From a bacterium (GTDB lineage: Bacteria; Patescibacteriota; Minisyncoccia; Phycocordibacterales; Phycocordibacteraceae), in contig JAHFML010000003.1 of the NCBI GenBank assembly GCA_023269085.1, forward strand, positions 52,863 to 116,862: 64,000 bases of DNA, written 5' to 3'. This document shows positions 8,593 through 59,297 of this stretch, one piece after another; within the stretch, counting starts at the first letter, position 1; every line of letters begins with the position of its first letter. The notes beneath the pieces are model-generated. The model was given only the letters and a program-made list of their open reading frames with translations. It did not search any database and was not told where the DNA came from. The position numbers and the translations under genes were made by a program.

Positions 8593-8946
8593 TCAAGGGG
8601 TTGGTAATTCTGCAAGGCATTGCTTCACACCTGTTTTGAACGGTGGCAAATCGTTCTGGATAGTATCCCACACCGCATGGATATCGACCTCGGGATACTC
8701 GTGAATGAGGAAGTCGCGCATTGCCGCGGCCGGCTTCCAGTCGATATTGGGGTACGCCTCGCGCACCGCGTCAGGGATACGCTTGACCGCTTCGCCGATA
8801 ATCTCGAGATTGCGCACGACCGCATCTTGCGTCTTCCCATCTGCGCCAAATGCCTCTGCCGACATGTCGATGGTGTACGACTCGATGCTCGTGATTGCAC
8901 CGATTATATCTGCTAGGTAGAGACGGATGTCGCGCGGAGCGGTCAT
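8593..8946 (-). CDS. hepT: HepT (DUF86) RNase toxin, second copy
   Basis: MTAPRDIRLYLADIIGAI...RDFLIHEY R-x4-H-x-Y motif; 4-nt overlap with upstream MNT. Confidence 0.85.
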   Translation of the reverse strand: MTAPRDIRLYLADIIGAITSIESYTIDMSAEAFGADGKTQDAVVRNLEIIGEAVKRIPDAVREAYPNIDWKPAAAMRDFLIHEYPEVDIHAVWDTIQNDLPPFKTGVKQCLAELPTP

Positions 8947-9221
8947 AGGATGGCGACTTCGTCTTTGAGGATGCGCTCGCGCAGGGCTGGTTTGATGGTG
9001 TCGTAGGCGATAAGGTCGACATTCTTCCCGAGTGTCGCTTCGAGCTCCTGTTTGAGCGTAAGGAACGAGAATAGTCCGTAAGGGCGCTTCATCTCGACGA
9101 GCAGATCGACATCGCGTGCAAACGGCTCGCCGCGCGCGACCGAACCGAACACTCCAGCGCGCGTTACCGCACGCCGCTTCAGTATTGGCGTCACTTTTTC
9201 TCGTACCTCTGCTATTTCCAT
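8943..9221 (-). CDS. mnt: MNT nucleotidyltransferase antitoxin, second copy
   Basis: GVFGSVARGEPFARDVDLLV nucleotidyltransferase motif. Confidence 0.85.
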   Translation of the reverse strand: MEIAEVREKVTPILKRRAVTRAGVFGSVARGEPFARDVDLLVEMKRPYGLFSFLTLKQELEATLGKNVDLIAYDTIKPALRERILKDEVAIL

Positions 9222-9275
9222 ACCTGAGAATCATACCATATTTTTGCGTGGCCGCCCCTTTAGGGTCGGCCGTGT

Positions 9276-9330
9276 CGTGCTACAGTACCTTCATGCTTAA
9301 ACTCACATCATTCGGCGGGGCGGGGAAGGT
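9276..9330 (+). repeat. Direct repeat DR-R (partner of 8513..8568); contains the start codon of the beta-CASP RNase gene
   Basis: see DR-L. Confidence 0.8.
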
Positions 9331-10741
9331 GACGGGCTCTAACTTTTTGATCGAAGGCGTACAGGCTAAAACCGCCGAAGGCGGTTCGCCCGACGCGGCA
9401 CAGAGTGCCGCGTTTAGGGGCAAGATGCTCGTCGACTGCGGTATGGAGCAGGGGGGCGACTTCGCGGTCGCCGAGATCTATGCGCCCTTCGCCTATGATG
9501 CCGCTTCTATCGACGCGCTCGTCGTGACGCACGCGCACCTCGATCATGTCGGGCGTATCCCCAAGCTTGTGCGGGAAGGGTTCAAAGGGAAAATATATAT
9601 GACTCCGCCGACCAAGGATCTCGCGCTCCTCATCCTTCACGATTCCATTAACATCTTGCGCGAAGAAGCGATGCGCCTCGGCAGGGCGCCCTTGTATGAA
9701 GCCGAGGATGTCGAGCGCGCGACCGCACTCATCGAAACGCTCGACTATCATATTGAGAAAGAAGTGGCGCCGGGCCTCTCGGTCTATTATCGCAACACGG
9801 GGCACATCCTCGGCGCGGCGAGCGTGCGCATCACGGATGAAGAGGGCACCGTGCTCGTGCTCACGGGCGACATCGGCAACTCGCCCTCGCCGCTCCTGCC
9901 CGACTGGGAGCCGGTCCCGGGCGCCGATGCGCTCCTCATGGAGAGTGTGTATGGCGACCGGCTCCACCCGGCGCACGCTGATCGCGTCGCGCGCTTGCGC
10001 GAGGCGCTCAAGCGCGCGATAGCGAAGGGCGGCACCATTCTTATCCCATCCTTCTCGATAGAACGCACCCAGCTCATGCTCTATGAGCTCTCCAACTTCT
10101 TCTCGGCGAGCGAGCTCCCGCCGGTGCCCGTCTTCCTCGATTCGCCGCTCGCTATCCATGTGACCGAGGTGTATGAGAAGTATGGCGCGACCTACTTCAA
10201 GAGCGAGGCCGAAGAGGAGATGAAGCGCGAGAAGAGCCTTTTCGAGTTCCCCTTCTTACAGAAGACGCTCGCACCAGAGGACTCGGCCGCGATAGCGAAG
10301 GTGCCGAGCCCGAAGATTATCATCGCGGGCGCGGGCATGAGCCATGGCGGCCGCATCGGCCGCTGGGAGGCGCGCTACTTGCCCGACCCAACCACGACGC
10401 TTCTCATCGTCGGCTACCAAGCCCCCGGCTCGCCGGGCAGGCGCATGGCCGACGGCGCACCGACGGTGCGCCTCGGCGGGCAGACGATTCACAATAGAGC
10501 GACCGTCGAGATTCTCGAGGGTTGGTCGGCGCATGCTGATCGCGACGAGCTTTTGAAATTTGCCGAAGAGGCACTCACCGACAAAAATAAAAAACTCAAG
10601 ACCATCTTCGTCGCGCTCGGCGAGCCTTCGGCCGAACGGTTCCTCGCCCAGCGCATCCATGACTACCTCGGCGCGACCGCCATAGTCCCCGAGCCCGCCG
10701 AGACATGGGAGATCTCGAAGGATGAGGTGAAGAGGGTGTGA
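9293..10741 (+). CDS. MBL-fold beta-CASP family ribonuclease (RNase J/CPSF-like)
   Basis: MLKLTSFGGAGKVTGSNFLIEG...VVTHAHLDHVGRIPKL (HxHxDH); beta-CASP C-terminal motifs; start placed at the internal Met matching the duplicated fragment. Confidence 0.75.
   Translation: MLKLTSFGGAGKVTGSNFLIEGVQAKTAEGGSPDAAQSAAFRGKMLVDCGMEQGGDFAVAEIYAPFAYDAASIDALVVTHAHLDHVGRIPKLVREGFKGKIYMTPPTKDLALLILHDSINILREEAMRLGRAPLYEAEDVERATALIETLDYHIEKEVAPGLSVYYRNTGHILGAASVRITDEEGTVLVLTGDIGNSPSPLLPDWEPVPGADALLMESVYGDRLHPAHADRVARLREALKRAIAKGGTILIPSFSIERTQLMLYELSNFFSASELPPVPVFLDSPLAIHVTEVYEKYGATYFKSEAEEEMKREKSLFEFPFLQKTLAPEDSAAIAKVPSPKIIIAGAGMSHGGRIGRWEARYLPDPTTTLLIVGYQAPGSPGRRMADGAPTVRLGGQTIHNRATVEILEGWSAHADRDELLKFAEEALTDKNKKLKTIFVALGEPSAERFLAQRIHDYLGATAIVPEPAETWEISKDEVKRV
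9366..9418 (+). repeat. In-frame ~53-nt palindromic insertion element (TIR ctaaaac...gtttag, two hairpins), copy 1
   Basis: ctaaaaccgccgaaggcggttcgcccgacgcggcacagagtgccgcgtttagg; ~80% identical to 56629..56678 in gatC. Confidence 0.75.
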
Positions 10742-17654: not shown

Positions 17655-17754
17655 TTTGTGCATATCTGGTTTGCACGAGTGCGCTGGGGGCTTGCTTTTT
17701 TGCATAATGTGTGCTAGTCTAAAACCTAGATAGAACCTTGCCATTACGCACGTT

Positions 17755-17813
17755 CGCCACAGCAGAAAGGGGCTTTCGCCAGTCGGCAGGCTCGGCCGTT
17801 TTCTGCTGTGGCG
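17755..17813 (+). promoter_or_regulatory. Conserved 5' leader stem-loop of DGR-1 target gene (paralogue at 54000..54058)
   Basis: cgccacagcagaaa...tttctgctgtggcg 14-bp stem with an inner hairpin; ~85% identical to the copy upstream of the second DGR target, with compensatory changes in the inner stem. Confidence 0.7.
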
Positions 17814-17887
17814 AACCGAATATGTCGGTGCGTCGTACAGCACGCGACAATATCAGCAATGATAGTCGCACAAAAGGAGATCGCATC

Positions 17888-18604
17888 ATGTTGACCGACT
17901 CTCGCACCATCGCTCAAGCATACGGTCTTGGGCAAAAAGTTTTCTCCGCCGGCGAGGTTGCCGGTATGACGCCAGAGCTTTGGAATGCTCTGGCTCAAGA
18001 CGCGCGATTGTTTGCGCAGCTTCCGGCGATGATCCGCGGCTCTTTGGCGGATGCGTTGGCTGAACAGCGCGAACAGCAACCCAAGTTCTTCACTCACATC
18101 GCGACGACCAACCTTGCCGCGACTGTGGGCAAAAAGACGAGGAAGTGTTTCGTTGGCAGTCGCTATACGTATCGCGACAACGACTTCGACAACTGGCTTC
18201 CCGCCAATCAGCCATCCGCCGATGCCTGCGTTATCACAACGCTTGCTTCTGAGCAGGACTGGACGTTTGCCGAAGCCGCTGCCAAAGTCCTAGGTGTTGG
18301 CGCTGGCACGAACATCATCTTGCTCGGCAAAGCGCTCATCGAGAACGGTCATATCATGACCTTGGCGCAAGCTGAAGAAATGATCGAAGCCAACGAGCAC
18401 GGCGAGAACACCGGTATGCACCGCGATGGTCGGGGCAATTTCTTCTTCGTGGAAACGGAGGACGAAAATAATCCCGTCTCGGTTGGCGGCGTCGGTCGCG
18501 TTGAGCGCGCTTGGGTCGCGTACGTCGGCTGGCTCGTCAGCGGCGATCGCTGGGACGCTGGCGGTCGGCTCCTCGTCCGCAACTTGGACGCTTCGAAACT
18601 CTGA
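17888..18604 (+). CDS. DGR-1 target protein with C-terminal variable region
   Basis: SD AAAGGAGA 7 nt upstream of ATG 17888; C-terminal 36 codons form the VR. Confidence 0.75.
   Translation: MLTDSRTIAQAYGLGQKVFSAGEVAGMTPELWNALAQDARLFAQLPAMIRGSLADALAEQREQQPKFFTHIATTNLAATVGKKTRKCFVGSRYTYRDNDFDNWLPANQPSADACVITTLASEQDWTFAEAAAKVLGVGAGTNIILLGKALIENGHIMTLAQAEEMIEANEHGENTGMHRDGRGNFFFVETEDENNPVSVGGVGRVERAWVAYVGWLVSGDRWDAGGRLLVRNLDASKL
18475..18583 (+). repeat. DGR-1 variable repeat (VR)
   Basis: 109 nt aligning to the TR at 18863..18971; ~20 mismatches, 19 at TR adenines. Confidence 0.9.
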
Positions 18605-18862
18605 CACTTGGTCTCTTTCGAGTGTCCTCTAATTACTCCTCTCACGTATTACGCGTGCGAGGAGTATACTTTTGTCTGAACACGCTGGCATCTTCGGTTC
18701 CCAAACTTGAGGTGGCGAGGTTCCGGGTAAGTTCACCCGAAAAAAGAAATATAAGTTGGTGTGTCGCGCTGGTGGGCTCACGGCCCCGAATAAGATACAG
18801 CTCAGAGAGCATTCGATGGGTGGTAACCTTCGCTGGTGGTAAGGATGGTGCGACACACAAAG

Positions 18863-18971
18863 CGTCTCGGTTGGCAACGTCAATCGCGATGAGCGCGATT
18901 GGAACGCGAACGTCAACCGGCTCGACAACGACAATCGCTGGAACGCTGACAATCGGCTCCTCGTCCGCAAC
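18863..18971 (+). repeat. DGR-1 template repeat (TR)
   Basis: Intergenic; rich in AAC/AAT/GAC codons in the VR frame; all but one difference from the VR are at adenines. Confidence 0.9.
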
Positions 18972-18976
18972 AGATC

Positions 18977-19336
18977 TTACTTTCTCTCGCTTTCTGCGGG
19001 AGTTTTCTTTTCAAGATATGAACGCCATGCGACCAGCATTTTGCTTGCATCAACAAGTAGTCCGCTTATACGTACATGTTGAGCGTTCGTAATCGCATTA
19101 CTCTCCCACCCGACAAGTAGAAGGAATTTCGCCACATCGAGTCGGGCAATTGAGATGTTGAGCGCAGAAATCTTTTGCGCGGACGGAAGATATGCCGCAG
19201 AAAAGGCAGATTCAAGCGTGTCGAGAAGAGCCGTGTCAATTCTCGTACCGATAGTCTGTCGCTTCGTTTTGGCAACGTGAGGGAGTGCTGCTTGCCAAGC
19301 GAGATACGCCTCCTTCAATTTCGATACTACGGGCAC
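18977..19336 (-). CDS. avd: Accessory variability determinant (Avd) homologue, DGR-1
   Basis: 119-aa four-helix-bundle-type protein; resembles Bordetella phage Avd; homologous to the 55141..55509 ORF; GTG start. Confidence 0.7.
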   Translation of the reverse strand: MPVVSKLKEAYLAWQAALPHVAKTKRQTIGTRIDTALLDTLESAFSAAYLPSAQKISALNISIARLDVAKFLLLVGWESNAITNAQHVRISGLLVDASKMLVAWRSYLEKKTPAESERK

Positions 19337-19361
19337 GAGCTTTTCTTGTTGCGGAAACGTC

Positions 19362-19373
19362 GGGGGGGGGGGG
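19362..19373 (+). repeat. Homopolymeric G12 tract in the 50-nt divergent avd/RT intergenic region
   Basis: cgtcGGGGGGGGGGGGtacgttcagaagaATG; lies 14 nt upstream of the RT ATG and 26 nt upstream of the avd start. Confidence 0.95.
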
Positions 19374-19386
19374 TACGTTCAGAAGA

Positions 19387-20409
19387 ATGGATAGAATAAA
19401 TATCACTCATTCCTTCGACAATATCACCTTGGTAGATAATTTGCTCGACGCGTGGAAAGAATTCTTGCGCGGCAAACAGAAGAGGAAAGACGTGCAAGTA
19501 TTCGGATATAATCTAATTGAAAATATAAAAAGCATCCACGCGGACCTCATTTCCGGCATCTACCAGCACGGCCAGTACGAGCACTTCAAAATCAACGACC
19601 CAAAGCCCCGCGACATCCACAAAGCGAGCGTGCGCGACCGGCTCGTGCACCATGCCATTTATCGCATTCTCTACCCATTCTTCGATCGCACTTTTATCAG
19701 CGACTCCTACTCCTGCCGCAATGGGAAGGGGACGCACAAAGCCATGAATCGCTTTAGAGCCTTTGCGCGCAAAGTATCGAAGAATGACACGCGCACTGCT
19801 TGGGTCTTGAAGTGCGACATACGCAAGTTCTTCGCATCGATTGATCAGCCAACGCTCCTCGCCCTCTTGAGAGAACGCATTTCAGACGAACGCACCCTGC
19901 TACTCCTGCAACGAGTTATCGAGAGCTTCTCAAGTACAGCGAGAGGGAAAGGCCTCCCGCTCGGCAATCTCACCTCACAGCTCCTCGTGAACATCTACAT
20001 GAACGAGTCCGATCAATTCGTGAAGCATATACTCAAAGCGAAATACTATATCCGCTATGCCGATGACTTCGTATTCATCTCCCACGATCGCAGAGAACTC
20101 GAGGCGCTTCTGCCTCGTGTCGATGCCTTTTTGCGCGACCGGCTCAAGCTCGAATTGCACCCGAATAAAGTCTCAATCGCCACGCTCGCTTCGGGTATCG
20201 ACTTCTTGGGCTGGGTGCATTTCTCTGACCATCGCGTCTTGCGAGGCGCGACGAAGCGACGGATGTTGCGGAGGATTGAAGAGACGAGCGACAAGCCGGA
20301 GGTGATGAGCTCGTATCTGGGGATGCTAGAGCATGGAAATGGGTACAAGTTGCGAGAAGAGATTATGTATTTGCATACACTCACCGAGGCGCGTACCATG
20401 GTGGCATGA
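19387..20409 (+). CDS. DGR-type reverse transcriptase, DGR-1
   Basis: RT motifs including YADD and the DGR-characteristic LGNLTSQ (motif 4, in place of the group II QGxxxSP); start could alternatively be the upstream in-frame ATG at 19285. Confidence 0.9.
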   Translation: MDRINITHSFDNITLVDNLLDAWKEFLRGKQKRKDVQVFGYNLIENIKSIHADLISGIYQHGQYEHFKINDPKPRDIHKASVRDRLVHHAIYRILYPFFDRTFISDSYSCRNGKGTHKAMNRFRAFARKVSKNDTRTAWVLKCDIRKFFASIDQPTLLALLRERISDERTLLLLQRVIESFSSTARGKGLPLGNLTSQLLVNIYMNESDQFVKHILKAKYYIRYADDFVFISHDRRELEALLPRVDAFLRDRLKLELHPNKVSIATLASGIDFLGWVHFSDHRVLRGATKRRMLRRIEETSDKPEVMSSYLGMLEHGNGYKLREEIMYLHTLTEARTMVA

Positions 20410-22740: not shown

Positions 22741-23783
22741 TCCCCTTTGAAATGCAATTGCTCTAACATGGAGCAATATGCAAAAGCGCCAAGAATTCAA
22801 ACATTTACAACAGAAGGACAGAGACCGTATTCATGATCTGTATCTGTTCGGCCACAGCCAGAAAGGCATCGCGGAAGTACTCGGGGTGAGCCCGGGCACC
22901 ATCTCGCGAGAACTGAAGCGGTATGACAAACGCACCTGGCGGTACTCCGCCACGAGAGCGCAAGAGGACGCAGAGCTGAAGCGTCTGCACAGCAAGCGCC
23001 CCGGCATGAAGATTGCCGAGAACCACGCACTGCGCCAGCAGGTCATTCAAGAACTAAAGAAACTCCGTTCCCCAGACGAGATTGCGGGACGCATGAAGAA
23101 AGAGGGAGTGTCACCACGAGTCGGCAAGAACGCTATATACAAATGGCTGTACAGCGAGGACGGCAAAGCATACTGTCGGTATCTCTGCACCAAACGAACC
23201 AAACCAAGAGGGCGTCGGTACCTTGAGGCACGTGTCCTCATTCCCGATCGAAAGTCCCACAGAACAAGGCCGGATTCCCCAGGGCTCATCCATACCGAAG
23301 GAGACTTGTTCGTATCACCACAAAAGTCAGGATCAACTGTATGTGGCCTTCTCGTGGTGGAAAAAGAGAGCAAGCTATACTCGGGTGCGCTCATTTCAAA
23401 CAAGAGCGCCGCGTTCATCGTACCCGCAATGCGACGAGCAACCCGAGCCGTCAGTGCAGACACCTGTACGCTCGACAATGGCATTGAGAACATCTGCCAT
23501 CGAAACTTCGACGTGGACACCTACTTCTGCGACCCAGGGACACCGACCCAGAAGCCGGATGTTGAGGGGTCAATCGGGCTCGTACGTCGCTGGTTCCTGC
23601 CAAAAGGAACTGACCTGTCCACCGTCTCCAATGAGACATACCAGTCGCAACTGCACCTGCTGAATCACAAGTATCGGAGGTCGCTCGGATACCGGAGTGC
23701 GTATGAAGACGCCCTTGAGCGAGGTATCATCAAACGAGTGCCGAGGGTTTCATTACAAATGGCGATTGCATTTCGCTAGGGAA
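22741..23783. mobile_element. IS30-family insertion sequence (~1.04 kb)
   Basis: Imperfect terminal IRs (CCCTTTGAAATGCAATTGC ... GCGATTGCATTTCGCTAGGG) bracket a single transposase ORF. Confidence 0.75.
22778..23779 (+). CDS. IS30-family DDE transposase
   Basis: N-terminal HTH (HSQKGIAEVLGVSPGTISRELKR), C-terminal DDE-type catalytic domain; ORF ends inside the right IR. Confidence 0.85.
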   Translation: MQKRQEFKHLQQKDRDRIHDLYLFGHSQKGIAEVLGVSPGTISRELKRYDKRTWRYSATRAQEDAELKRLHSKRPGMKIAENHALRQQVIQELKKLRSPDEIAGRMKKEGVSPRVGKNAIYKWLYSEDGKAYCRYLCTKRTKPRGRRYLEARVLIPDRKSHRTRPDSPGLIHTEGDLFVSPQKSGSTVCGLLVVEKESKLYSGALISNKSAAFIVPAMRRATRAVSADTCTLDNGIENICHRNFDVDTYFCDPGTPTQKPDVEGSIGLVRRWFLPKGTDLSTVSNETYQSQLHLLNHKYRRSLGYRSAYEDALERGIIKRVPRVSLQMAIAFR

Positions 23784-26492: not shown

Positions 26493-26517
26493 CGGGTGGA
26501 CACTAGGTGTCCACCCG
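26493..26517 (+). repeat. 25-bp inverted-repeat element copy 1 (cgggtggacac-tag-gtgtccacccg)
   Basis: 11-bp perfect arms with a 3-nt spacer; 4 copies in the window. Confidence 0.95.
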
Positions 26518-27228: not shown

Positions 27229-27253
27229 TGGGTGGACACTAGGTGTCCACCCA
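27229..27253 (+). repeat. 25-bp inverted-repeat element copy 2
   Basis: tgggtggacactaggtgtccaccca. Confidence 0.95.
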
Positions 27254-31279: not shown

Positions 31280-31304
31280 CGGGTGGACACTAGGTGTCCA
31301 CCCG
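31280..31304 (+). repeat. 25-bp inverted-repeat element copy 3
   Basis: cgggtggacactaggtgtccacccg. Confidence 0.95.
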
Positions 31305-35165: not shown

Positions 35166-35326
35166 CAGCGTTCTCGTATAGTGTCTCTAACGCATCTTGG
35201 CGTCGCTCTTTGGCTTGTCTGCTTTGTGAGTTGGCGGGCCGCGGAGCTTTTTTCCGACTCGCTTGTCTGCCGACAGGCAGGCGTCGGAATGATTCGTGAT
35301 TTACTAAAACATTACCGATAATCATT

Positions 35327-36556: not shown

Positions 36557-36991
36557 ATGGAACCAACCACGGAAGTAAAACCGAAAGCGACTAAAACTTC
36601 CTCAGGAAGTTCGTCCGACACTTCGCGAAGCGAAGTGTCTAGGAAGCGTGTTTCGAAGAAGGTCGCGGCCGTCGCTCCGGTAGTCGAGCACAAGCTCCGG
36701 ATCCGGGTTCGCGCCTATGAGCACAAGATTCTCGATCTCTCGGTGAAGCAGATCATGGACACAGCGGCGCGTTTCGACGCGGTGATCGTGGGCCCTGTCC
36801 CGCTCCCGACCGAGATCAAGCGTTGGACAGTGAACCGCTCGACCTTCGTCCACAAGGACGCGCGCGAGCAGTTCGAGATGCGCATCCATAAGCGCCTCAT
36901 CGACATCCGGAACCCGTCGCCGAAGGTGATCGAGGCCCTCACGAACCTCAATCTCCCCTCCGGTGTGACGATTGATGTGAAGATGGTGTAG
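36557..36991 (+). CDS. rpsJ: 30S ribosomal protein S10 with ~42-aa Lys/Ser-rich N-terminal extension
   Basis: ...HKLRIRVRAYEHKILDLSVKQIMDTAARFDAVIVGPVPLPTEIKRWTVNRSTFVHKDAREQFEMRIHKRLIDI. Confidence 0.9.
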   Translation: MEPTTEVKPKATKTSSGSSSDTSRSEVSRKRVSKKVAAVAPVVEHKLRIRVRAYEHKILDLSVKQIMDTAARFDAVIVGPVPLPTEIKRWTVNRSTFVHKDAREQFEMRIHKRLIDIRNPSPKVIEALTNLNLPSGVTIDVKMV

Positions 36992-51913: not shown

Positions 51914-53956
<2,043 letters not shown>

Positions 53957-53999: not shown

Positions 54000-54058
54000 C
54001 GCCACAGCAGAAAGGGGCTTCCGCCAACCGGCGGACTAGGCCGTTTTCTGCTGTGGCG
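54000..54058 (+). promoter_or_regulatory. Conserved 5' leader stem-loop of DGR-2 target gene
   Basis: cgccacagcagaaa...tttctgctgtggcg; paralogue of 17755..17813. Confidence 0.7.
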
Positions 54059-54120
54059 AACCGAATAGGTACGCTTGAACAGCACTGTAAAAACGCTCTT
54101 CCCAAGCCAAGGAGAAAGTC

Positions 54121-54714
54121 ATGAGCGCACAACAGAAGCAAATCACGAAACTAGTGGCCGCTCTGGTCGAGTTTTCTGACCAGTTCGGCCAGATGTCGAC
54201 CGAGGATTGCCAATGGGCAATCCAAAACACGAAAGCGGCAATCGGCCTCTTCGTAGAGGCGGTGAGGAATCGCCCGATAGCAGCTCTGGTCGGGTTGCCA
54301 GAAGGCACGGTCATCCGTCGCGTGAAGGTCGACCGCTCGCATTCTCCGCAGAAAATGGTGAACGCGACCGGCCGTAGGCAGTACATCGACAAGGACATCC
54401 TCGCGACGATGCCTTTGGGCGAAGGCGACGAGGTGGATGTGTACTTCGTACCGACCAAGCGCTTCGTTTTGGCAAGTGAGGTCTCGGCGTTTCTCGCGCA
54501 GTATGGTCTCGTTCCCGACCCGCGCGCGCAAACGGCGGTGAACGAAGCCGATCCGACCTTCGCCGACGACCATCCGAACGGAACGCAATGGAGCGATTTT
54601 TGCTACCTGACGTTCTACCGCTGGTATGACGAGCGGGACGTGTACTGCAACCGCGACGACCGCGTCTGGCGCGGCTATTGGTTCCTCTCGGGTGTCCCGA
54701 CTCCCCGCAAGTAA
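54121..54714 (+). CDS. DGR-2 target protein with C-terminal variable region
   Basis: SD AAGGAGA 5 nt upstream; VR occupies the last ~36 codons (…CYLTFYRWYDERDVYCNRDDRVWRGYWFLSGVPTPRK). Confidence 0.75.
   Translation: MSAQQKQITKLVAALVEFSDQFGQMSTEDCQWAIQNTKAAIGLFVEAVRNRPIAALVGLPEGTVIRRVKVDRSHSPQKMVNATGRRQYIDKDILATMPLGEGDEVDVYFVPTKRFVLASEVSAFLAQYGLVPDPRAQTAVNEADPTFADDHPNGTQWSDFCYLTFYRWYDERDVYCNRDDRVWRGYWFLSGVPTPRK
54601..54707 (+). repeat. DGR-2 variable repeat (VR)
   Basis: 107 nt aligning to 55025..55131; ~14 mismatches, all at TR adenines. Confidence 0.9.
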
Positions 54715-54763
54715 GTCCTCGGGTCTTTGAGTATAAGAACTCTTTAGACCCTTAACCCTTTGT

Positions 54764-54792
54764 GCGCCGCTTTCCCAAGCGGCGCATTTTGT
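54764..54792 (+). terminator. Rho-independent terminator after DGR-2 target
   Basis: gcgccgc tttcccaa gcggcgc + attttgt. Confidence 0.7.
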
Positions 54793-55024
54793 ATATGATG
54801 CAAATGGTAGTAGGCGAATACGGAAGCGATTACGGTTTCTTCCTGCCGAATCCAGTATCCGTACGTTGAGAACGTGTGCGATTACGGTTGCATATGGAGG
54901 ATGTACGCAGAAACTTCAAAAAATGAAGATACTTGGTGTGAAGTGCTGGCGCATTACCGATGCCGAATACGATTCAACCTTGAGAATACTCGATGGGTGG
55001 TGGCACAGATGGCGCTCCATACAT

Positions 55025-55131
55025 TGCTACCTGACGTTCAACCGCTGGAATGACGAGCGGAACGTGAACTGCAACCGCAACGACAACGACTGGAACGACA
55101 ATTGGTTCCTCTCGGGTGTCCCGACTCCCCG
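55025..55131 (+). repeat. DGR-2 template repeat (TR)
   Basis: AAC-rich in VR frame (…NRWNDERNVNCNRNDNDWNDNWF…); intergenic. Confidence 0.9.
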
Positions 55132-55140
55132 TAACTCTCT

Positions 55141-55509
55141 TCATTTCTCGCCCGAACCTCTATGTTCGGGCGAGTTTTGTTTAACGAGCTGCCCATTCCA
55201 TCCACCAAGCATTCTCCCGACCTCCTCAAGTGGCATCGAGAGAGCGATGTATTTCTTCGTATCGAGCGATTTGGTCTCCCAGAGGATGAGTAAGAATATT
55301 TTTAGCGTATCGAGTTTACGAATAGCGAGACGCACCCACGGCTGTTTCTCAGTTTTTGAGAGAAAGCTTGCACTTGCGACTGCTTCAATCAACGCAACGA
55401 ATTCCGCGTCAACTGTTCCACCGAGCGTGTGCCGATGGGTCTTCGGTATGGTTTGATAAAATCCATACCATATAATATACGCATGCTTAATACGCTCGAG
55501 CACCGGCAA
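55141..55509 (-). CDS. avd: Avd homologue, DGR-2
   Basis: 122 aa; ...LSMPLEEVGRMLGGWNGQLVKQ resembles the Avd C-terminus; TTG start. Confidence 0.7.
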   Translation of the reverse strand: MPVLERIKHAYIIWYGFYQTIPKTHRHTLGGTVDAEFVALIEAVASASFLSKTEKQPWVRLAIRKLDTLKIFLLILWETKSLDTKKYIALSMPLEEVGRMLGGWNGQLVKQNSPEHRGSGEK

Positions 55510-55516
55510 GAGCCTC

Positions 55517-55526
55517 GGGGGGGGGG
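55517..55526 (+). repeat. Homopolymeric G10 tract between divergent avd-2 and RT-2
   Basis: agcctcGGGGGGGGGGagcttcgaag; 8 nt upstream of avd-2 start. Confidence 0.95.
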
Positions 55527-55606
55527 AGCTTCGAAGAATCGAATTCGTTCATACCTATGAGCATATCATCTCGATCGAGAACCTTCTCGACGCGTGGCGA
55601 GAATTC

Positions 55607-56542
55607 GTGAGAGGGAAGAAGAAGCGTGCGGATGTGCAAGAGTTCGAGAGAGACTTGATGCAAAATGTCATATCGTTGCATCGTTATCTCGTGTCTGGCG
55701 CGTACCAGCACGGCCAGTACGAGCGCTTCAAAATCAACGACCCCAAGCCTCGCGACATCCACAAAGCGAGCGTGCGCGATCGGCTCGTGCACCATGCCAT
55801 CTATCGCATTCTATATCCATTCTTCGACCGCACTTTCATCAGCGACTCCTATTCCTGCCGCAATGGGAAGGGAACGCACAGAGCCATGAATCGCTTTAGA
55901 GCCTTTGCGCGCAAAGTATCGAAGAATGACACGCGCACTGCTTGGGTCTTGAAGTGCGACATACGCAAGTTCTTCGCCTCGATTGATCAGTCAACGCTCC
56001 TCGTCATCTTGAAGAGACGCATAACAGACGAACGCACGCTGACACTTCTGCAACGAGTTATCGAGAGCTTCCGCACACCCTGTGCAACACCTGGTGTTGC
56101 ACAAAAAGGCCTCCCGCTTGGCAACCTTACCTCACAACTCCTCGTGAACATCTACATGAACGAGTTCGATCAATTCGTGAAGCACGCGCTCAAAGCAAGA
56201 TACTATCTCCGCTATGCCGATGACTTCGTATTCATCTCTCACGACCGCAGAGAGCTCGAGGCGCTTCTGCCTCGGGTCGATGCCTTTTTGCGCGACCGGC
56301 TCAAGCTCGAACTGCATCCAGACAAAGTCTCAATCGCCACGCTCGCTTCGGGTATCGACTTCTTGGGCTGGGTGCATTTCTCTGACCATCGCGTTGTGCG
56401 AGGCGCGACGAAGCGGCGGATGTTGCGGAGGATTGAAGAGATGGGTGGCAAGCCAGAGGTGGTGAGCTCGTATCTGGGGATGCTCTCGCACGGGAACGCG
56501 TACCGGCTTGTTGCTCATATTTCAGAACAGAAGGAAAAGTGA
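55607..56542 (+). CDS. DGR-type reverse transcriptase, DGR-2
   Basis: ~85% identical to RT-1; YADD and LGNLTSQ motifs; no ATG equivalent to RT-1 Met1 (ATG->ATC), so the true N-terminus is unclear. Confidence 0.85.
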   Translation: MRGKKKRADVQEFERDLMQNVISLHRYLVSGAYQHGQYERFKINDPKPRDIHKASVRDRLVHHAIYRILYPFFDRTFISDSYSCRNGKGTHRAMNRFRAFARKVSKNDTRTAWVLKCDIRKFFASIDQSTLLVILKRRITDERTLTLLQRVIESFRTPCATPGVAQKGLPLGNLTSQLLVNIYMNEFDQFVKHALKARYYLRYADDFVFISHDRRELEALLPRVDAFLRDRLKLELHPDKVSIATLASGIDFLGWVHFSDHRVVRGATKRRMLRRIEEMGGKPEVVSSYLGMLSHGNAYRLVAHISEQKEK

Positions 56543-56555
56543 TACAGTAGAAACC

Positions 56556-56900
56556 ATGGCGACTACAGAGGAGGTGAAGAAGCTCGCGGCCTTGGCGCGG
56601 ATTACCATTGCCGACGAAGAACTCACGACTAAAACCGCCCAAGGCGGTTCGTCCGACGCCGCAGAAGCGGCGTTTAGGAAGTTTACGAGTGAGTTTGACG
56701 CTATCTTGGCGTATGTCGGCCAGCTCGAGGAGCTCGAGTTGCCCGAGGGCTTGGTGGGAGAGAAGCCGGCCTTGCGGAACATCTTTCGTGATGACGCAGA
56801 GCCGTATCCCGCGCGCACCTTTACCGAAAAGATTACAGCGCAATTTCCGGCACGTTCGGGCGACGCGCTCTTGGTGAAGCAAATCATTTCTCATGAATAA
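56556..56900 (+). CDS. gatC: Glu/Asp-tRNA amidotransferase subunit C
   Basis: MATTEEVKKLAALARITIADEEL...ILAYVGQLEELEL...ALRNIFRDD; carries an in-frame 50-nt element. Confidence 0.85.
   Translation: MATTEEVKKLAALARITIADEELTTKTAQGGSSDAAEAAFRKFTSEFDAILAYVGQLEELELPEGLVGEKPALRNIFRDDAEPYPARTFTEKITAQFPARSGDALLVKQIISHE
56629..56678 (+). repeat. In-frame ~50-nt palindromic insertion element, copy 2 (in gatC)
   Basis: ctaaaaccgcccaaggcggttcgtccgacgccgcagaagcggcgtttagg; encodes TKTAQGGSSDAAEAAFR. Confidence 0.75.
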
Positions 56901-58341
56901 AGAAAAATTGAATGAGTTGACGATTGGTGAGGCCGCCCGCGCGCTCCGCCTGCCTGACGGCAGTCAGGCGCGCGTCACCGTTCGTGAATTATGGGACGCT
57001 TGCATCGAAGCGGCCAAAGCGAAGAACCCCGAGCTGAACGCCTATCTCGAAATTTTTGATGCTGACGAGGCGGCTATTGCCGACGCACAAAAGAGAATAA
57101 ATGAAGAAGGGGACAAAGCACCACTTCTCTGCGGCATCCCGCTCGCTATTAAAGACAACATCTTGATAGAAGGCCACATCGCGAGTGCCGCGAGCCGGAT
57201 GCTTGAGAACTATCGCGCGACCTACGACGCTACCGTCATCGAGAAGCTCAGGGTGGCGGGCGCGCTCTTCATCGGGCGCACCAACATGGACGAGTTCGCG
57301 ATGGGTTCGTCGACTGAGCACTCGGCCTTCGTGAAGACGCGCAACCCGCACGACCCTGCGCGCGTGCCGGGTGGCTCATCGGGCGGCTCGGCGGCGGCGG
57401 TCGCCGCGCACATGGCGATCGCGGCTCTCGGCACCGACACGGGTGGCTCTATCCGCCAGCCCGCCGCACTCACCGGCCTCGTCGGGTTGAAGCCGACCTA
57501 TGGCGAGGTCTCGCGCTCGGGCGCTATCGCGATGGGCTCGTCGCTCGATCAGATCGGCCCGCTCGCGAAGACAGCTGAAGACGCGAAGATTATTTTCGAT
57601 ACAATACGCGGCGTTGATCCGCTCGATTCGACGACGATTCCTGACGGTCTCTATCCAGTACAAAAAGTGGGGCTGAAGCTGCGCATCGGTGTCCCGCGTG
57701 CGCTCCTCGGCGACAATGTTACGGCCGATGTGCGCGCCGCCTTCGATGCCACCCTCGAGAGACTCGTGCAGGCCGGCCACACGCTCGTCGATATCGAGCT
57801 CCCGACGAGCGCGCACTCGCTCGCGGCCTATTATGTCATCATGCCGGCCGAGGTATCGACCAATCTCGCGCGGCTCGACGGTATCCGTTATGGTCACGCC
57901 GTGCGTGGCGCGACTCTGCTCGACGACTACCTGCTCTCTCGTACCGAAGGCTTCGGAGAAGAGACGCGCCGCCGCATCCTGCTTGGCACCTTCGTCCTCT
58001 CCTCGGGCTATATCGACGCCTACTATCGCAAGGCGCACGCCGCGCGCGACGTGCTCCGCCACGAATATAACGAAGCCTTCAAGAAGGTCGACGTCATCGC
58101 TTTCCCCACGACGCTCTCGCCCGCGTTCAAGTTCGGCGAAAAGAGCGACCCGATCTCTATGTATCTCGAAGACATCTTCACGGTGACGGCCAACCTCACC
58201 GGCATGCCCGCGCTCTCAACACCGATGGGCACGGTCGAGCGGGAAGGGAAGCAGCTCCCGATCGGCATCCACTTCACTGCGCCGCATCAGGCCGAAGAAA
58301 CACTCTTCACCATAGCCTCTCTTGTTGAACATTCGGCATAG
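56893..58341 (+). CDS. gatA: Glutamyl-tRNA(Gln) amidotransferase subunit A
   Basis: Amidase signature GGSSGGSAAAVAA...GTDTGGSIRQPA. Confidence 0.95.
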   Translation: MNKEKLNELTIGEAARALRLPDGSQARVTVRELWDACIEAAKAKNPELNAYLEIFDADEAAIADAQKRINEEGDKAPLLCGIPLAIKDNILIEGHIASAASRMLENYRATYDATVIEKLRVAGALFIGRTNMDEFAMGSSTEHSAFVKTRNPHDPARVPGGSSGGSAAAVAAHMAIAALGTDTGGSIRQPAALTGLVGLKPTYGEVSRSGAIAMGSSLDQIGPLAKTAEDAKIIFDTIRGVDPLDSTTIPDGLYPVQKVGLKLRIGVPRALLGDNVTADVRAAFDATLERLVQAGHTLVDIELPTSAHSLAAYYVIMPAEVSTNLARLDGIRYGHAVRGATLLDDYLLSRTEGFGEETRRRILLGTFVLSSGYIDAYYRKAHAARDVLRHEYNEAFKKVDVIAFPTTLSPAFKFGEKSDPISMYLEDIFTVTANLTGMPALSTPMGTVEREGKQLPIGIHFTAPHQAEETLFTIASLVEHSA

Positions 58342-59007: not shown

Positions 59008-59297
59008 GCGGGGTAGAGGAGAGGTACCTCGGGAGGCTTGAGTTATTCGGGCGTGCGCGCGAGCAATTGCGCGTAAGATCATCTGTCAAATTCGGCGAAC
59101 CCCTCTCGCGAAAACGAAAGGCAACACCGAGCCAAGCTTTGCGAATAATCGCAAGGAAGGTGTAGAGACTAGACGGCAGACATCCTGAGCGTAGTCGAAG
59201 GATGAAGGCATAGTCCAGACCACAAACGAAAGGCAATGAAAATTGTAGTGGTAAGCATAACCTCCAGACCCTGGTTCGATTCCAGGCCCCGCAACAA
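59008..59297 (+). ncRNA. ssrA: Candidate tmRNA-like RNA (tRNA-like T-arm plus acceptor-like 3' end); identity uncertain
   Basis: 3' end ...CCTGG-TTCGATT-CCAGG-CCCCGCA-A mimics T-arm plus acceptor strand; complementary GCGGGG ~285 nt upstream; 410-nt ORF-free interval; followed by a strong terminator; tag ORF not confidently identified. Confidence 0.4.

Follow-up and report, generated by a model that had tools for sequence, protein, structure and literature searches.

An in-frame 51-nt insertion in a patescibacterial gatC gene and its family of miniature two-hairpin elements, probably mobile DNA

Related systems and the gatC element

Palindromic inserts that sit in frame in housekeeping genes have been described in Rickettsia (RPE; PMC10969869). 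The repeat reported here resembles them, as both are repeated palindromic elements in unrelated housekeeping genes of a reduced-genome bacterium, always in frame and with the peptide at tolerated positions; both also occur between genes, and a transposase is known for neither. In our data the frame was intact in 62 copies within open reading frames (ORFs), representing 38 host-protein families. RPE differ in being about 100-150 bp long (roughly three times longer) and in forming sequence-similar families with a conserved peptide in Rickettsia, whereas the present element measures 49-56 nt, conserves only its structure and 13 unpaired nucleotides, is read in four frames, is dyad-symmetric, has a centre complementary to its junctions and resides in Patescibacteria, a phylum unrelated to Rickettsia; neither the RPE length, nor a sequence-defined peptide family, nor a Rickettsia host was found. 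The two are set apart on the described features of RPE. The element is an in-frame palindromic repeat element, distinguished by its very small size, its definition by structure rather than sequence, the complementarity of its centre to its junctions, its long conservation and its wide occurrence in Patescibacteria.

The IS200/IS605 group (IS608, PMC3201880, PMC5934647; REP-RAYT, PMC3333891) offers a second comparison, IS608 being the nearest precedent in mechanism as RPE are in biology. In IS608, a guide sequence lies 5' of each hairpin foot and recognises the cleavage and target sites by base pairing (PMC3201880); an altered guide retargets integration (PMC5934647). The likeness lies in hairpins near both ends, a short sequence 5' of a hairpin foot that pairs with the junction or target, a target choice that follows the guide, the possibility of precise loss, and recognition by structure rather than sequence. 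In the present element, NCC 5' of hairpin 2 pairs with GGN' at the 3' junction. IS608, however, places its two guides and two cleavages on a single strand, uses 4-nt sites that include non-canonical pairs, and leaves no flanking repeat. In this element the right-end-like arrangement is repeated at the 3' end of either strand, pairing of the centre with the left junction being confined to the minus-strand fold; a single centre is shared by both junctions, the pairing is 3 bp long, a 2-nt direct repeat flanks the unit, and no Y1 transposase was found in the searches reported below, so that the element falls outside the IS200/IS605 definition. REPs carry a GTAG box, which this element lacks.

MITEs (Correia/NEMIS, ERIC, RUP and others) are likewise small, non-autonomous and dispersed, with short TIRs (here CTAAA...TTTAG) and a short flanking repeat; the ends of our element read CTAAA(A)C and GTTTAG, and the empty allele has one GN', the filled allele two. 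Copies of a MITE within one genome are normally close in sequence and have ends matching a resident IS, whereas copies of this element share the junction nucleotides only, are few per genome and have no parental IS in sight; neither IS-matching ends nor near-identical copies were found. Integron attC sites are, like the element, recombination-type sites conserved in fold and not in sequence, and both have AAC...GTT at their hairpin feet. But attC sites consist of one bulged hairpin each, located at the ends of cassettes beside an integrase, whereas the element has two hairpins and lies inside genes, with neither cassette nor IntI in its surroundings; of the attC boxes RYYYAAC / GTTRRRY, its CTAAAAC / GTTTAGG match the AAC/GTT portion only. 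Translational bypass (T4 gene 60 gap, mitochondrial byps), with its frame-interrupting gap and matched take-off and landing codons, does not describe it either, the frame being continuous in every genic copy.

The family of tiny two-hairpin elements is apparently undescribed. Rfam at the gathering score gave no match to the element in the window and 15 further loci, and a sensitive Rfam scan (E up to 10) of 56560-56750 returned chance-level matches only (E >= 0.7). No description was found in Rfam or in the incompletely covered literature on MITEs and palindromic in-frame elements of Patescibacteria/CPR. Hammerhead and other ribozyme cores were rejected, as the sequence does not fit and holds no CUGAUGA/GAAA hammerhead core, and a tRNA T-loop reading of GTTCGNCC does not fit the sequence.

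The gatC copy, its empty sites and the wider family

Within the window, that is, the whole 64,000-nt stretch of DNA analysed here, the gatC ORF matches Pfam GatC (PF02686) over residues 41-107 and is followed by gatA. A sequence-only reading had placed inside gatC a second in-frame copy of a repeated element of about 50 nt. The exact string (CTAAAACCGCCCAAGGCGGTTCGTCCGACGCCGCAGAAGCGGCGTTTAGG) was found there, in frame within the ORF, and encodes the peptide that had been read from it, T-TKTAQGGSSDAAEAAFR-KF; alignment confirmed that the insert lies between the N-terminal helix of GatC and the conserved segment (FDAILAYV). The ~50-nt repeat stood as described; what that reading had overlooked is the rpsJ copy (the third), the 2-nt repeat at the flanks and the true inserted unit, which in gatC, including one flanking GA, is 51 nt or 17 codons. 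Our analysis adds a family of about 96 copies, its anatomy, the empty site, the covariation of flank and centre, and evidence for constraint. The coordinates are collected in Table 1.

Table 1. Element copies in the window and the parts of the gatC copy
Feature	Position	Strand	Description
gatC CDS	56556..56900	+	114 aa (97 aa + 17-aa insert); Pfam GatC; 990 homologues; alignments
Left GA of the 2-nt direct repeat (GN', N' = A)	56627..56628	+	second GA at 56678-56679; single GA in the empty allele
Element copy 2	56629..56678	+	50 nt as matched, CTAAAAC-H1-TTCGTCCGAC-H2-GTTTAGG; inside gatC; exact pattern match
Hairpin 1 of copy 2	56633..56649	+	AACCGCC / loop CAA / GGCGGTT; DNA fold, family covariation, orthologues
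Unpaired centre CGTCC of copy 2 (CG-N-CC, N = T)	56650..56654	+	TCC pairs with GGA at 56677-56679; mirror folds on both strands
Hairpin 2 of copy 2	56655..56674	+	GACGCCGC / loop AGAA / GCGGCGTT; then TA bulge, then junction helix; fold and covariation
Element copy 1	9366..9418	+	53 nt, N = C, flanks GG..G; in frame in beta-CASP/MBL hydrolase gene (9293-10741)
Element copy 3	36591..36643	+	53 nt, N = T, flanks GA..A; in frame, N-terminal tail of rpsJ (S10, 36557-36991)

Folded as DNA, the gatC copy reached a minimum free energy of -18.1 kcal/mol (z = -5.4), and none of 200 shuffles folded equally well. Two hairpins formed in each of the three window copies as single-stranded DNA (z -4.7 to -5.5; 0/200 shuffles match), and the folds on the two strands are mirror images; on the minus strand, the centre of the gatC element pairs across the left junction. 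The compensatory change that had been claimed for hairpin 2 holds: its arms are GACGCCGC/GCGGCGTT in gatC versus GACGCGGCAC/GTGCCGCGTT in copy 1, with different stems that both pair.

GatC normally has no insert at this position, as the sequence-only reading had supposed. The modal length was 96-97 aa among the best 120 homologues, versus 114 aa in the window, and in the alignment of these 120 the 17 extra residues between ...AELx and KFTSEFDAILAYV were present only in the window protein and in P0002, P0004, P0005 and P0054, leaving a 17-residue gap in all others; about 95% of close GatC homologues lack the residues. GatC of the closest relative (P0003) is 92% identical outside the insert and does not contain it. 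At the DNA level, the empty gatC site reads GCGA|AGTTC (L073), versus ACGA[51 nt]AGTTT in the window, and the empty gene reads ...GAGCTCGCGA|AGTTCACG..., versus ...GAACTCACGA[CTAAAAC...GTTTAGGA]AGTTTACG... in the window. From this comparison of empty and filled DNA (gatC of P0003 against the window), the gain or loss amounts to 51 nt; the empty allele has a single GA dinucleotide, and the filled one has GA on each side of the element. The Kaiserbacteria gatC of L065 is empty at the window's insertion site and carries a near-identical 50-nt element at another, after LELPK. In a GatC tree, which rests on 97 residues and is poorly resolved, filled alleles were interspersed with empty ones: the window protein has the empty P0003 as its sister, and P0002 groups nearest the empty P0008. 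The 92%-identical filled/empty pair by itself implies either precise loss or a second gain at an identical site. No decayed 17-residue inserts were seen among the aligned GatC homologues.

The pattern CTAAAACN{11,15}TTCGYCCGACN{12,20}GTYTAGG (in generalised form, CTAAAAC-N11-15-TTCGYCCGAC-N12-20-GTYTAGG) had three matches in the window, where shuffles gave an expectation of 0.00. A covariance model run over every window position recovered exactly the same three full copies, all on the + strand, and scored the gatC copy at 60.9 bits (model R1, E = 7e-16). Copy 1 sits in the turn between FLIEG and GKMLVDCG of the hydrolase and has orthologous copies in L008, L055, L058, L070 and L072, and related copies of the rpsJ element were found in the S10 genes of L081, L082 and L083. 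Outside the window we found about 93 further copies in roughly 50 Patescibacteria genomes. The scan of species-representative genomes gave 73 exact-pattern matches in 72 loci of about 50 assemblies (counted by record names), and a covariance model built from 23 copies then turned up about 18 others, of greater divergence, within the same 620 kb. All exact matches came from Patescibacteria MAGs, mostly of Paceibacterota/Parcubacteria lineages such as Kaiserbacteria, except for one in a Planctomycetota MAG, which lacks the hairpins and lies within the number of chance matches (about three) estimated beforehand. The viral contigs scanned gave no match and hence no sign of a phage source.

Each unit has the anatomy GN' | CTAA-[hairpin 1]-(T)CG-N-CC-[hairpin 2]-(Y)TAG | GN', with a core of 49-55 nt and the flanking 2-nt direct repeat, giving an inserted length in genes of 51, 54 or 57 nt. 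Across copies the stem sequences are almost unrelated and pairing is kept. In the family alignment (A5), stem cells were paired in 98.0% of cases versus 84.3% in shuffles, 12/20 stem pairs had changed on both sides, and none of 500 shuffles reached the observed values. In the diverged copies the hairpin feet also covary (AAC..GTT to ATC..GAT or AGC..GCT; GAC..GTY to GAAC..GTTY). Only the unpaired CTAA, (T)CG-N-CC and (Y)TAGG are invariant, a conservation that in pattern-derived copies is partly ascertainment, the unbiased sets being small, of 5 and 4 sequences. Within a genome the copies are dissimilar; the three in the window and the five in REEB12 all have different stems. Some intergenic copies have particular neighbours: a tandem pair (L048 5593-5697) shares a common GG junction and lies some 250 nt away from a 16S rRNA gene, with a remnant-like CCCTAAttatTTTAGGG just upstream, and two others (L018 3760-3814; L069 74-127) adjoin an opposite-strand tRNA gene at its first base (5' end).

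The flanks follow the centre. Among 76 copies, position -2 was G in 72 and position -1 equalled +1 (G 50, A 12, C 14). RNAalifold paired the central N with +1 (pair 34-67: CG 49, GC 12, UA 9), and under a relaxed parse the -1 base was complementary to N in 103 of 107 copies. The initial set contained a single N = A copy, which did not fit the N-N' rule, and T at -1 was absent from all copies then known. We predicted GT upstream of N = A copies; in a metagenome scan, 3/3 matches had GT upstream and 2/3 had T at +1, and all four Watson-Crick states of N/N' occur. In the + strand fold, NCC pairs with GGN' (the last element base and two flanking bases) across a TA bulge beyond hairpin 2, and in the - strand fold GN'C of the centre meets the left junction in the mirror-image pairing. 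Both junctions are thus complementary to a single 5-nt centre. The whole element is dyad-symmetric, and with N = G the centre TCGGCCGA is a perfect palindrome, so the orientation of such copies is unassignable and their two strands obtain equal covariance-model scores. For the 2-nt repeat, three origins are compatible with the sequence: genuine duplication of the target, a recombination core, or a 3' end belonging to the element itself. With a 2-nt core, as in serine recombination, identical flanking dinucleotides would also be expected, but a core of that type would not by itself explain a complementary centre.

The ORFs considered for genic copies had at least 100 codons; several proteins have more than one site, and the other copies are intergenic. 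Judged from flanking-peptide motifs, the hosts would include a beta-CASP hydrolase, PheS, GatB, GatC, MiaA, UvrC, ArgRS, RsmA, a UvrD-like helicase, a translational GTPase and S10, with Pfam confirmation of identity covering the window genes only. Genic copies use four reading frames with unrelated peptides (AKTAEGGSPDAS..FR; LKLPNGSSPD..GLG; GLNQSEGLVGRTGKPVLG; PKPSSGRSGEPS..FS), and by frame the element yields AKTAEGGSPD.., LKLPNGSSPD.., GLNQSEGLVGRT.. and PKPSSGRSGE... The two frames that hold the element's TAA and TAG are used by no genic copy, and genes are never split by a copy. Copies 53, 50 or 56 nt long (54, 51 and 57 nt with one flanking repeat) make up 61/76, and lengths other than 2 mod 3 belong mostly to intergenic copies. 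None of the 38 independent families has the stop frame, an outcome with a probability of ~2e-7 if frame were irrelevant. This statistic suggests that ribosomes read through the element, which would then be translated with its host gene.

Inheritance, constraint and the nature of the element

Four further species (L074-L077) carry the element at exactly the window's gatC site. Among the five orthologues, flanking third codon positions were 41-59% identical and 8/51 were invariant, indicating that flanking synonymous sites are near saturation. Within the element, 11/17 third positions were invariant (Fisher p = 2.6e-4 against the flanks), and the unpaired core was invariant at 13/13 positions, including 5/5 third positions (n = 5; probability for the latter ~1e-4). 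The hairpins changed on both arms: hairpin 2 from GAC..GTT to GGC..GCT in all four species and from GCCGC/GCGGC to ACTGC/GCAGT, and hairpin 1 from AAC..GTT to AGT..ACT in two. The rpsJ copies, found by protein similarity only, gave the same pattern of constraint, and in two of them hairpin 1 is longer by 3 bp per arm, exactly two codons. A beta-CASP protein search for unbiased orthologues returned mainly short fragments without the insert, most homologues having a 6-residue turn there.

Same-site copies from different species are more alike than different-site copies of one genome, which shows that the copies are old and vertically inherited. They are inherited vertically over the long term, under nucleotide-level constraint, and are occasionally lost precisely. 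A selfish insert that is merely read through should decay, and these copies do not, which points to some function or conserving force absent from a mobile-element account. Template switching between arms could keep the stems complementary without selection, but it cannot keep 13 unpaired bases constant. Each copy might serve the cell as a DNA or RNA site bound by protein; otherwise preservation of the fold itself might matter, for example if only folded copies can be removed precisely.

Structures selected as RNA usually tolerate G.U pairs and not A.C. Among ~1,500 stem pairs, 96-97% were Watson-Crick, with 17 G.T and 22 A.C. Relative to the host gene, N = C copies were sense in 31 cases and antisense in 11, and N = T copies were all sense. 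An antisense copy occupies the same UvrD-like helicase site in two species (L057 and L063), one of the two containing a 30-nt nested hairpin inside the loop of hairpin 2, and one RsmA site is filled in opposite orientations in different species; these helicase and RsmA copies lie at L057 4643-4737 and 7914-7978, L063 2176-2228 and 4201-4253, and L029 3245-3297. With neighbouring genes taken as a proxy for replication direction, the copies showed no fixed orientation. The stem-pair statistics, the presence of both orientations and the lack of an Rfam match together suggest that the element is recognised as DNA, whether on one or the other strand or as a cruciform; an RNA role for the sense copies is compatible with this evidence.

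A structured, dyad-symmetric 50-nt repeat, inserted in frame with a 2-nt repeat, polymorphic for presence and absence, complementary between centre and junctions in all four states and constrained at the nucleotide level, is, or was, probably a mobile DNA element. On balance we favour the view that the gatC insert belongs to a family of miniature, two-hairpin mobile DNA elements of Patescibacteria that are translated through. A putative structure-specific enzyme would recognise the hairpins, and the centre would act as a guide that selects a GN' target and presents the junctions for cleavage, on the same principle as the IS608 guides. Genic insertions would survive in the four stop-free frames and at positions tolerated by the protein. 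To judge from the frame statistics, the element would be transcribed and translated with its gene, forming a 17-residue loop and helix extension in GatC. Against mobility, the copies within a genome show no apparent recent copying, which is atypical for a MITE.

No transposase or nuclease linked to the element was found. Pfam revealed no Y1/HUH enzyme in the window, and a tblastn search of 620 kb of flanking DNA with IS608 TnpA and RAYT sequences, a weak test, had no match. The sole transposase gene of the window is of the IS30 family (22778-23779; NCBIfam NF033563, 126.7 bits; TIRs CCCTTTGAAATGCAATTGC / GCGATTGCATTTCGCTAGGG). IS30 elements make 2-3-bp duplications; as the mobilising enzyme, this transposase was rejected because its terminal repeats (CCCTTTGAAATGCAATTGC...) are unrelated to the element. 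The DGR reverse transcriptase just upstream of gatC was rejected as a partner too, since the other two copies lie far from either DGR and relatives carry the element without a DGR.

A more specific version of the mobile reading, which we put forward tentatively and consider improbable as it stands, is a new type of self-guided nucleic-acid element whose 5-nt centre (CG-N-CC), in a folded single strand, reads the 2-nt target and both junctions through Watson-Crick pairs and whose folded copies can be excised precisely, out of DNA or possibly out of mRNA. Such excisability would explain selection on the hairpins and core at each essential-gene locus. If true, this would be the smallest known programmable (guide-bearing) mobile element and a bacterial counterpart of structure-triggered transposon excision.

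Alternatively, the element might be a DNA site that benefits the host, bound or processed by a conserved DNA-binding or structure-specific protein, with mobility ancient or incidental and purifying selection on each copy; it might help to organise the nucleoid, restart replication or support recombination. The nucleotide constraint seen where copies are vertically inherited, which covers the unpaired core and the two hairpins alike, speaks for such domestication, as do the greater likeness of orthologous-site copies than of copies of one genome, the dyad symmetry and strict Watson-Crick stems that suit recognition as DNA, the persistence of both orientations and the low copy number per genome. 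Yet close relatives live without the copy (the empty gatC alleles), the genic positions look opportunistic, being loops and tails of unrelated proteins, a candidate protein is not known, the density is only ~1 per 20 kb in the window, and orientation relative to neighbouring genes is inconsistent; we regard this explanation as unlikely. The fixed junction nucleotides and free stems are also the conservation pattern of functional RNAs, and the element might be a structured RNA in the mRNA, with a three-way-junction-like fold (P1 CUA/UAG, two hairpins, junction CGNCC) that serves as a binding site for a regulatory protein or ligand, as a processing site or as a mini-intron, the centre pairing with the 5' and 3' junctions in turn as an internal guide. 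The ability of the centre to pair with both junctions and the excess of sense copies among N = C and N = T elements agree with this, and constraint at each essential-gene locus would be natural if removal or binding mattered. In animals, an RNA-level system excises inverted-repeat transposons from mRNAs (PMC12779559), which lends the idea a precedent. But the frame is never broken and the inserted length in genes is a multiple of three, which would be needless if the element were removed from RNA; G.U is no commoner than A.C, antisense copies are real and persist in orthologues (L063/L057 helicase, RsmA), no Rfam family matches, and intergenic and tandem copies exist. An mRNA structure therefore seems to us quite unlikely.

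An ordinary lineage-specific protein insertion, kept for its peptide and with incidental hairpins, is scarcely credible. It would account for the reading in frame and for the AlphaFold2 prediction for GatC alone, a hint only given its low confidence (pLDDT 58), that the second half of the insert extends the conserved GatC helix; but the same nucleotide element gives four unrelated peptides in four frames, also lies between genes, has invariant synonymous core positions and has stems that covary.

Patescibacteria have genomes of about 1 Mb, almost all of it essential. If the mobile, translated reading is true, they tolerate a widespread structured element in translation and repair genes (GatC, GatB, PheS, ArgRS, MiaA, S10, UvrC, UvrD-like helicase), and inserts of 17-19 residues in Patescibacteria proteins would be explained, which matters for annotation and structure work. 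A 50-nt unit that seems to choose its target through base pairs with its own centre would be a minimal reprogrammable targeting module, comparable in principle to the IS608 guides. Nucleotide-level conservation that outlasts synonymous sites is unexpected for junk and points to an enzyme or function to look for.

Other features of the window

Two DGR-like cassettes lie at 17738-20409 and 54000-56542, the second between ligA and gatC; in L065 and L073, ligA adjoins gatC directly. Their reverse transcriptases (19285-20409 and 55607-56542; Pfam RVT_1) are 92-94% identical, and imperfect template/variable-like repeat pairs are present in both (18475-18583 / 18863-18971, 82%; 54600-54710 / 55024-55134, 88%), together with a bAvd-like gene at 55141-55509 (-).

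A smaller palindrome, GCCTGCCTGACGGCAGTCAGGCG, occurs at 56948-56970 (+) and 35260-35282 (-). The former copy is in frame in the N-terminus of gatA and encodes LPDGSQA, and GatA of L065 is 5 residues shorter there; the latter lies upstream of tuf, with a compensatory change of GAC/GTC to GTC/GAC. Motifs such as LPAGRQ and LPDGT were seen in the S10 tails of relatives, and this palindrome may be another in-frame mini-element family. A perfect palindrome, GGGTGGACAC(T/C)TAGTGTCCACCC, is present in four copies at gene ends (26495-26517, 27231-27253, 31282-31304 and 52253-52275) and looks terminator-like or REP-like.

A HepT-like ribonuclease toxin gene (8593-9234, -) is the immediate upstream neighbour, in divergent orientation, of the beta-CASP gene holding copy 1. 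Finally, positions 59008-59293 contain a tRNA gene with a group I intron in the anticodon loop (Rfam RF00028, 59030-59235, 56.2 bits), which was missed by ARAGORN and by the Rfam tRNA model; group I introns have recently been reported in Patescibacteria tRNA genes (PMC13011429), and this case fits.
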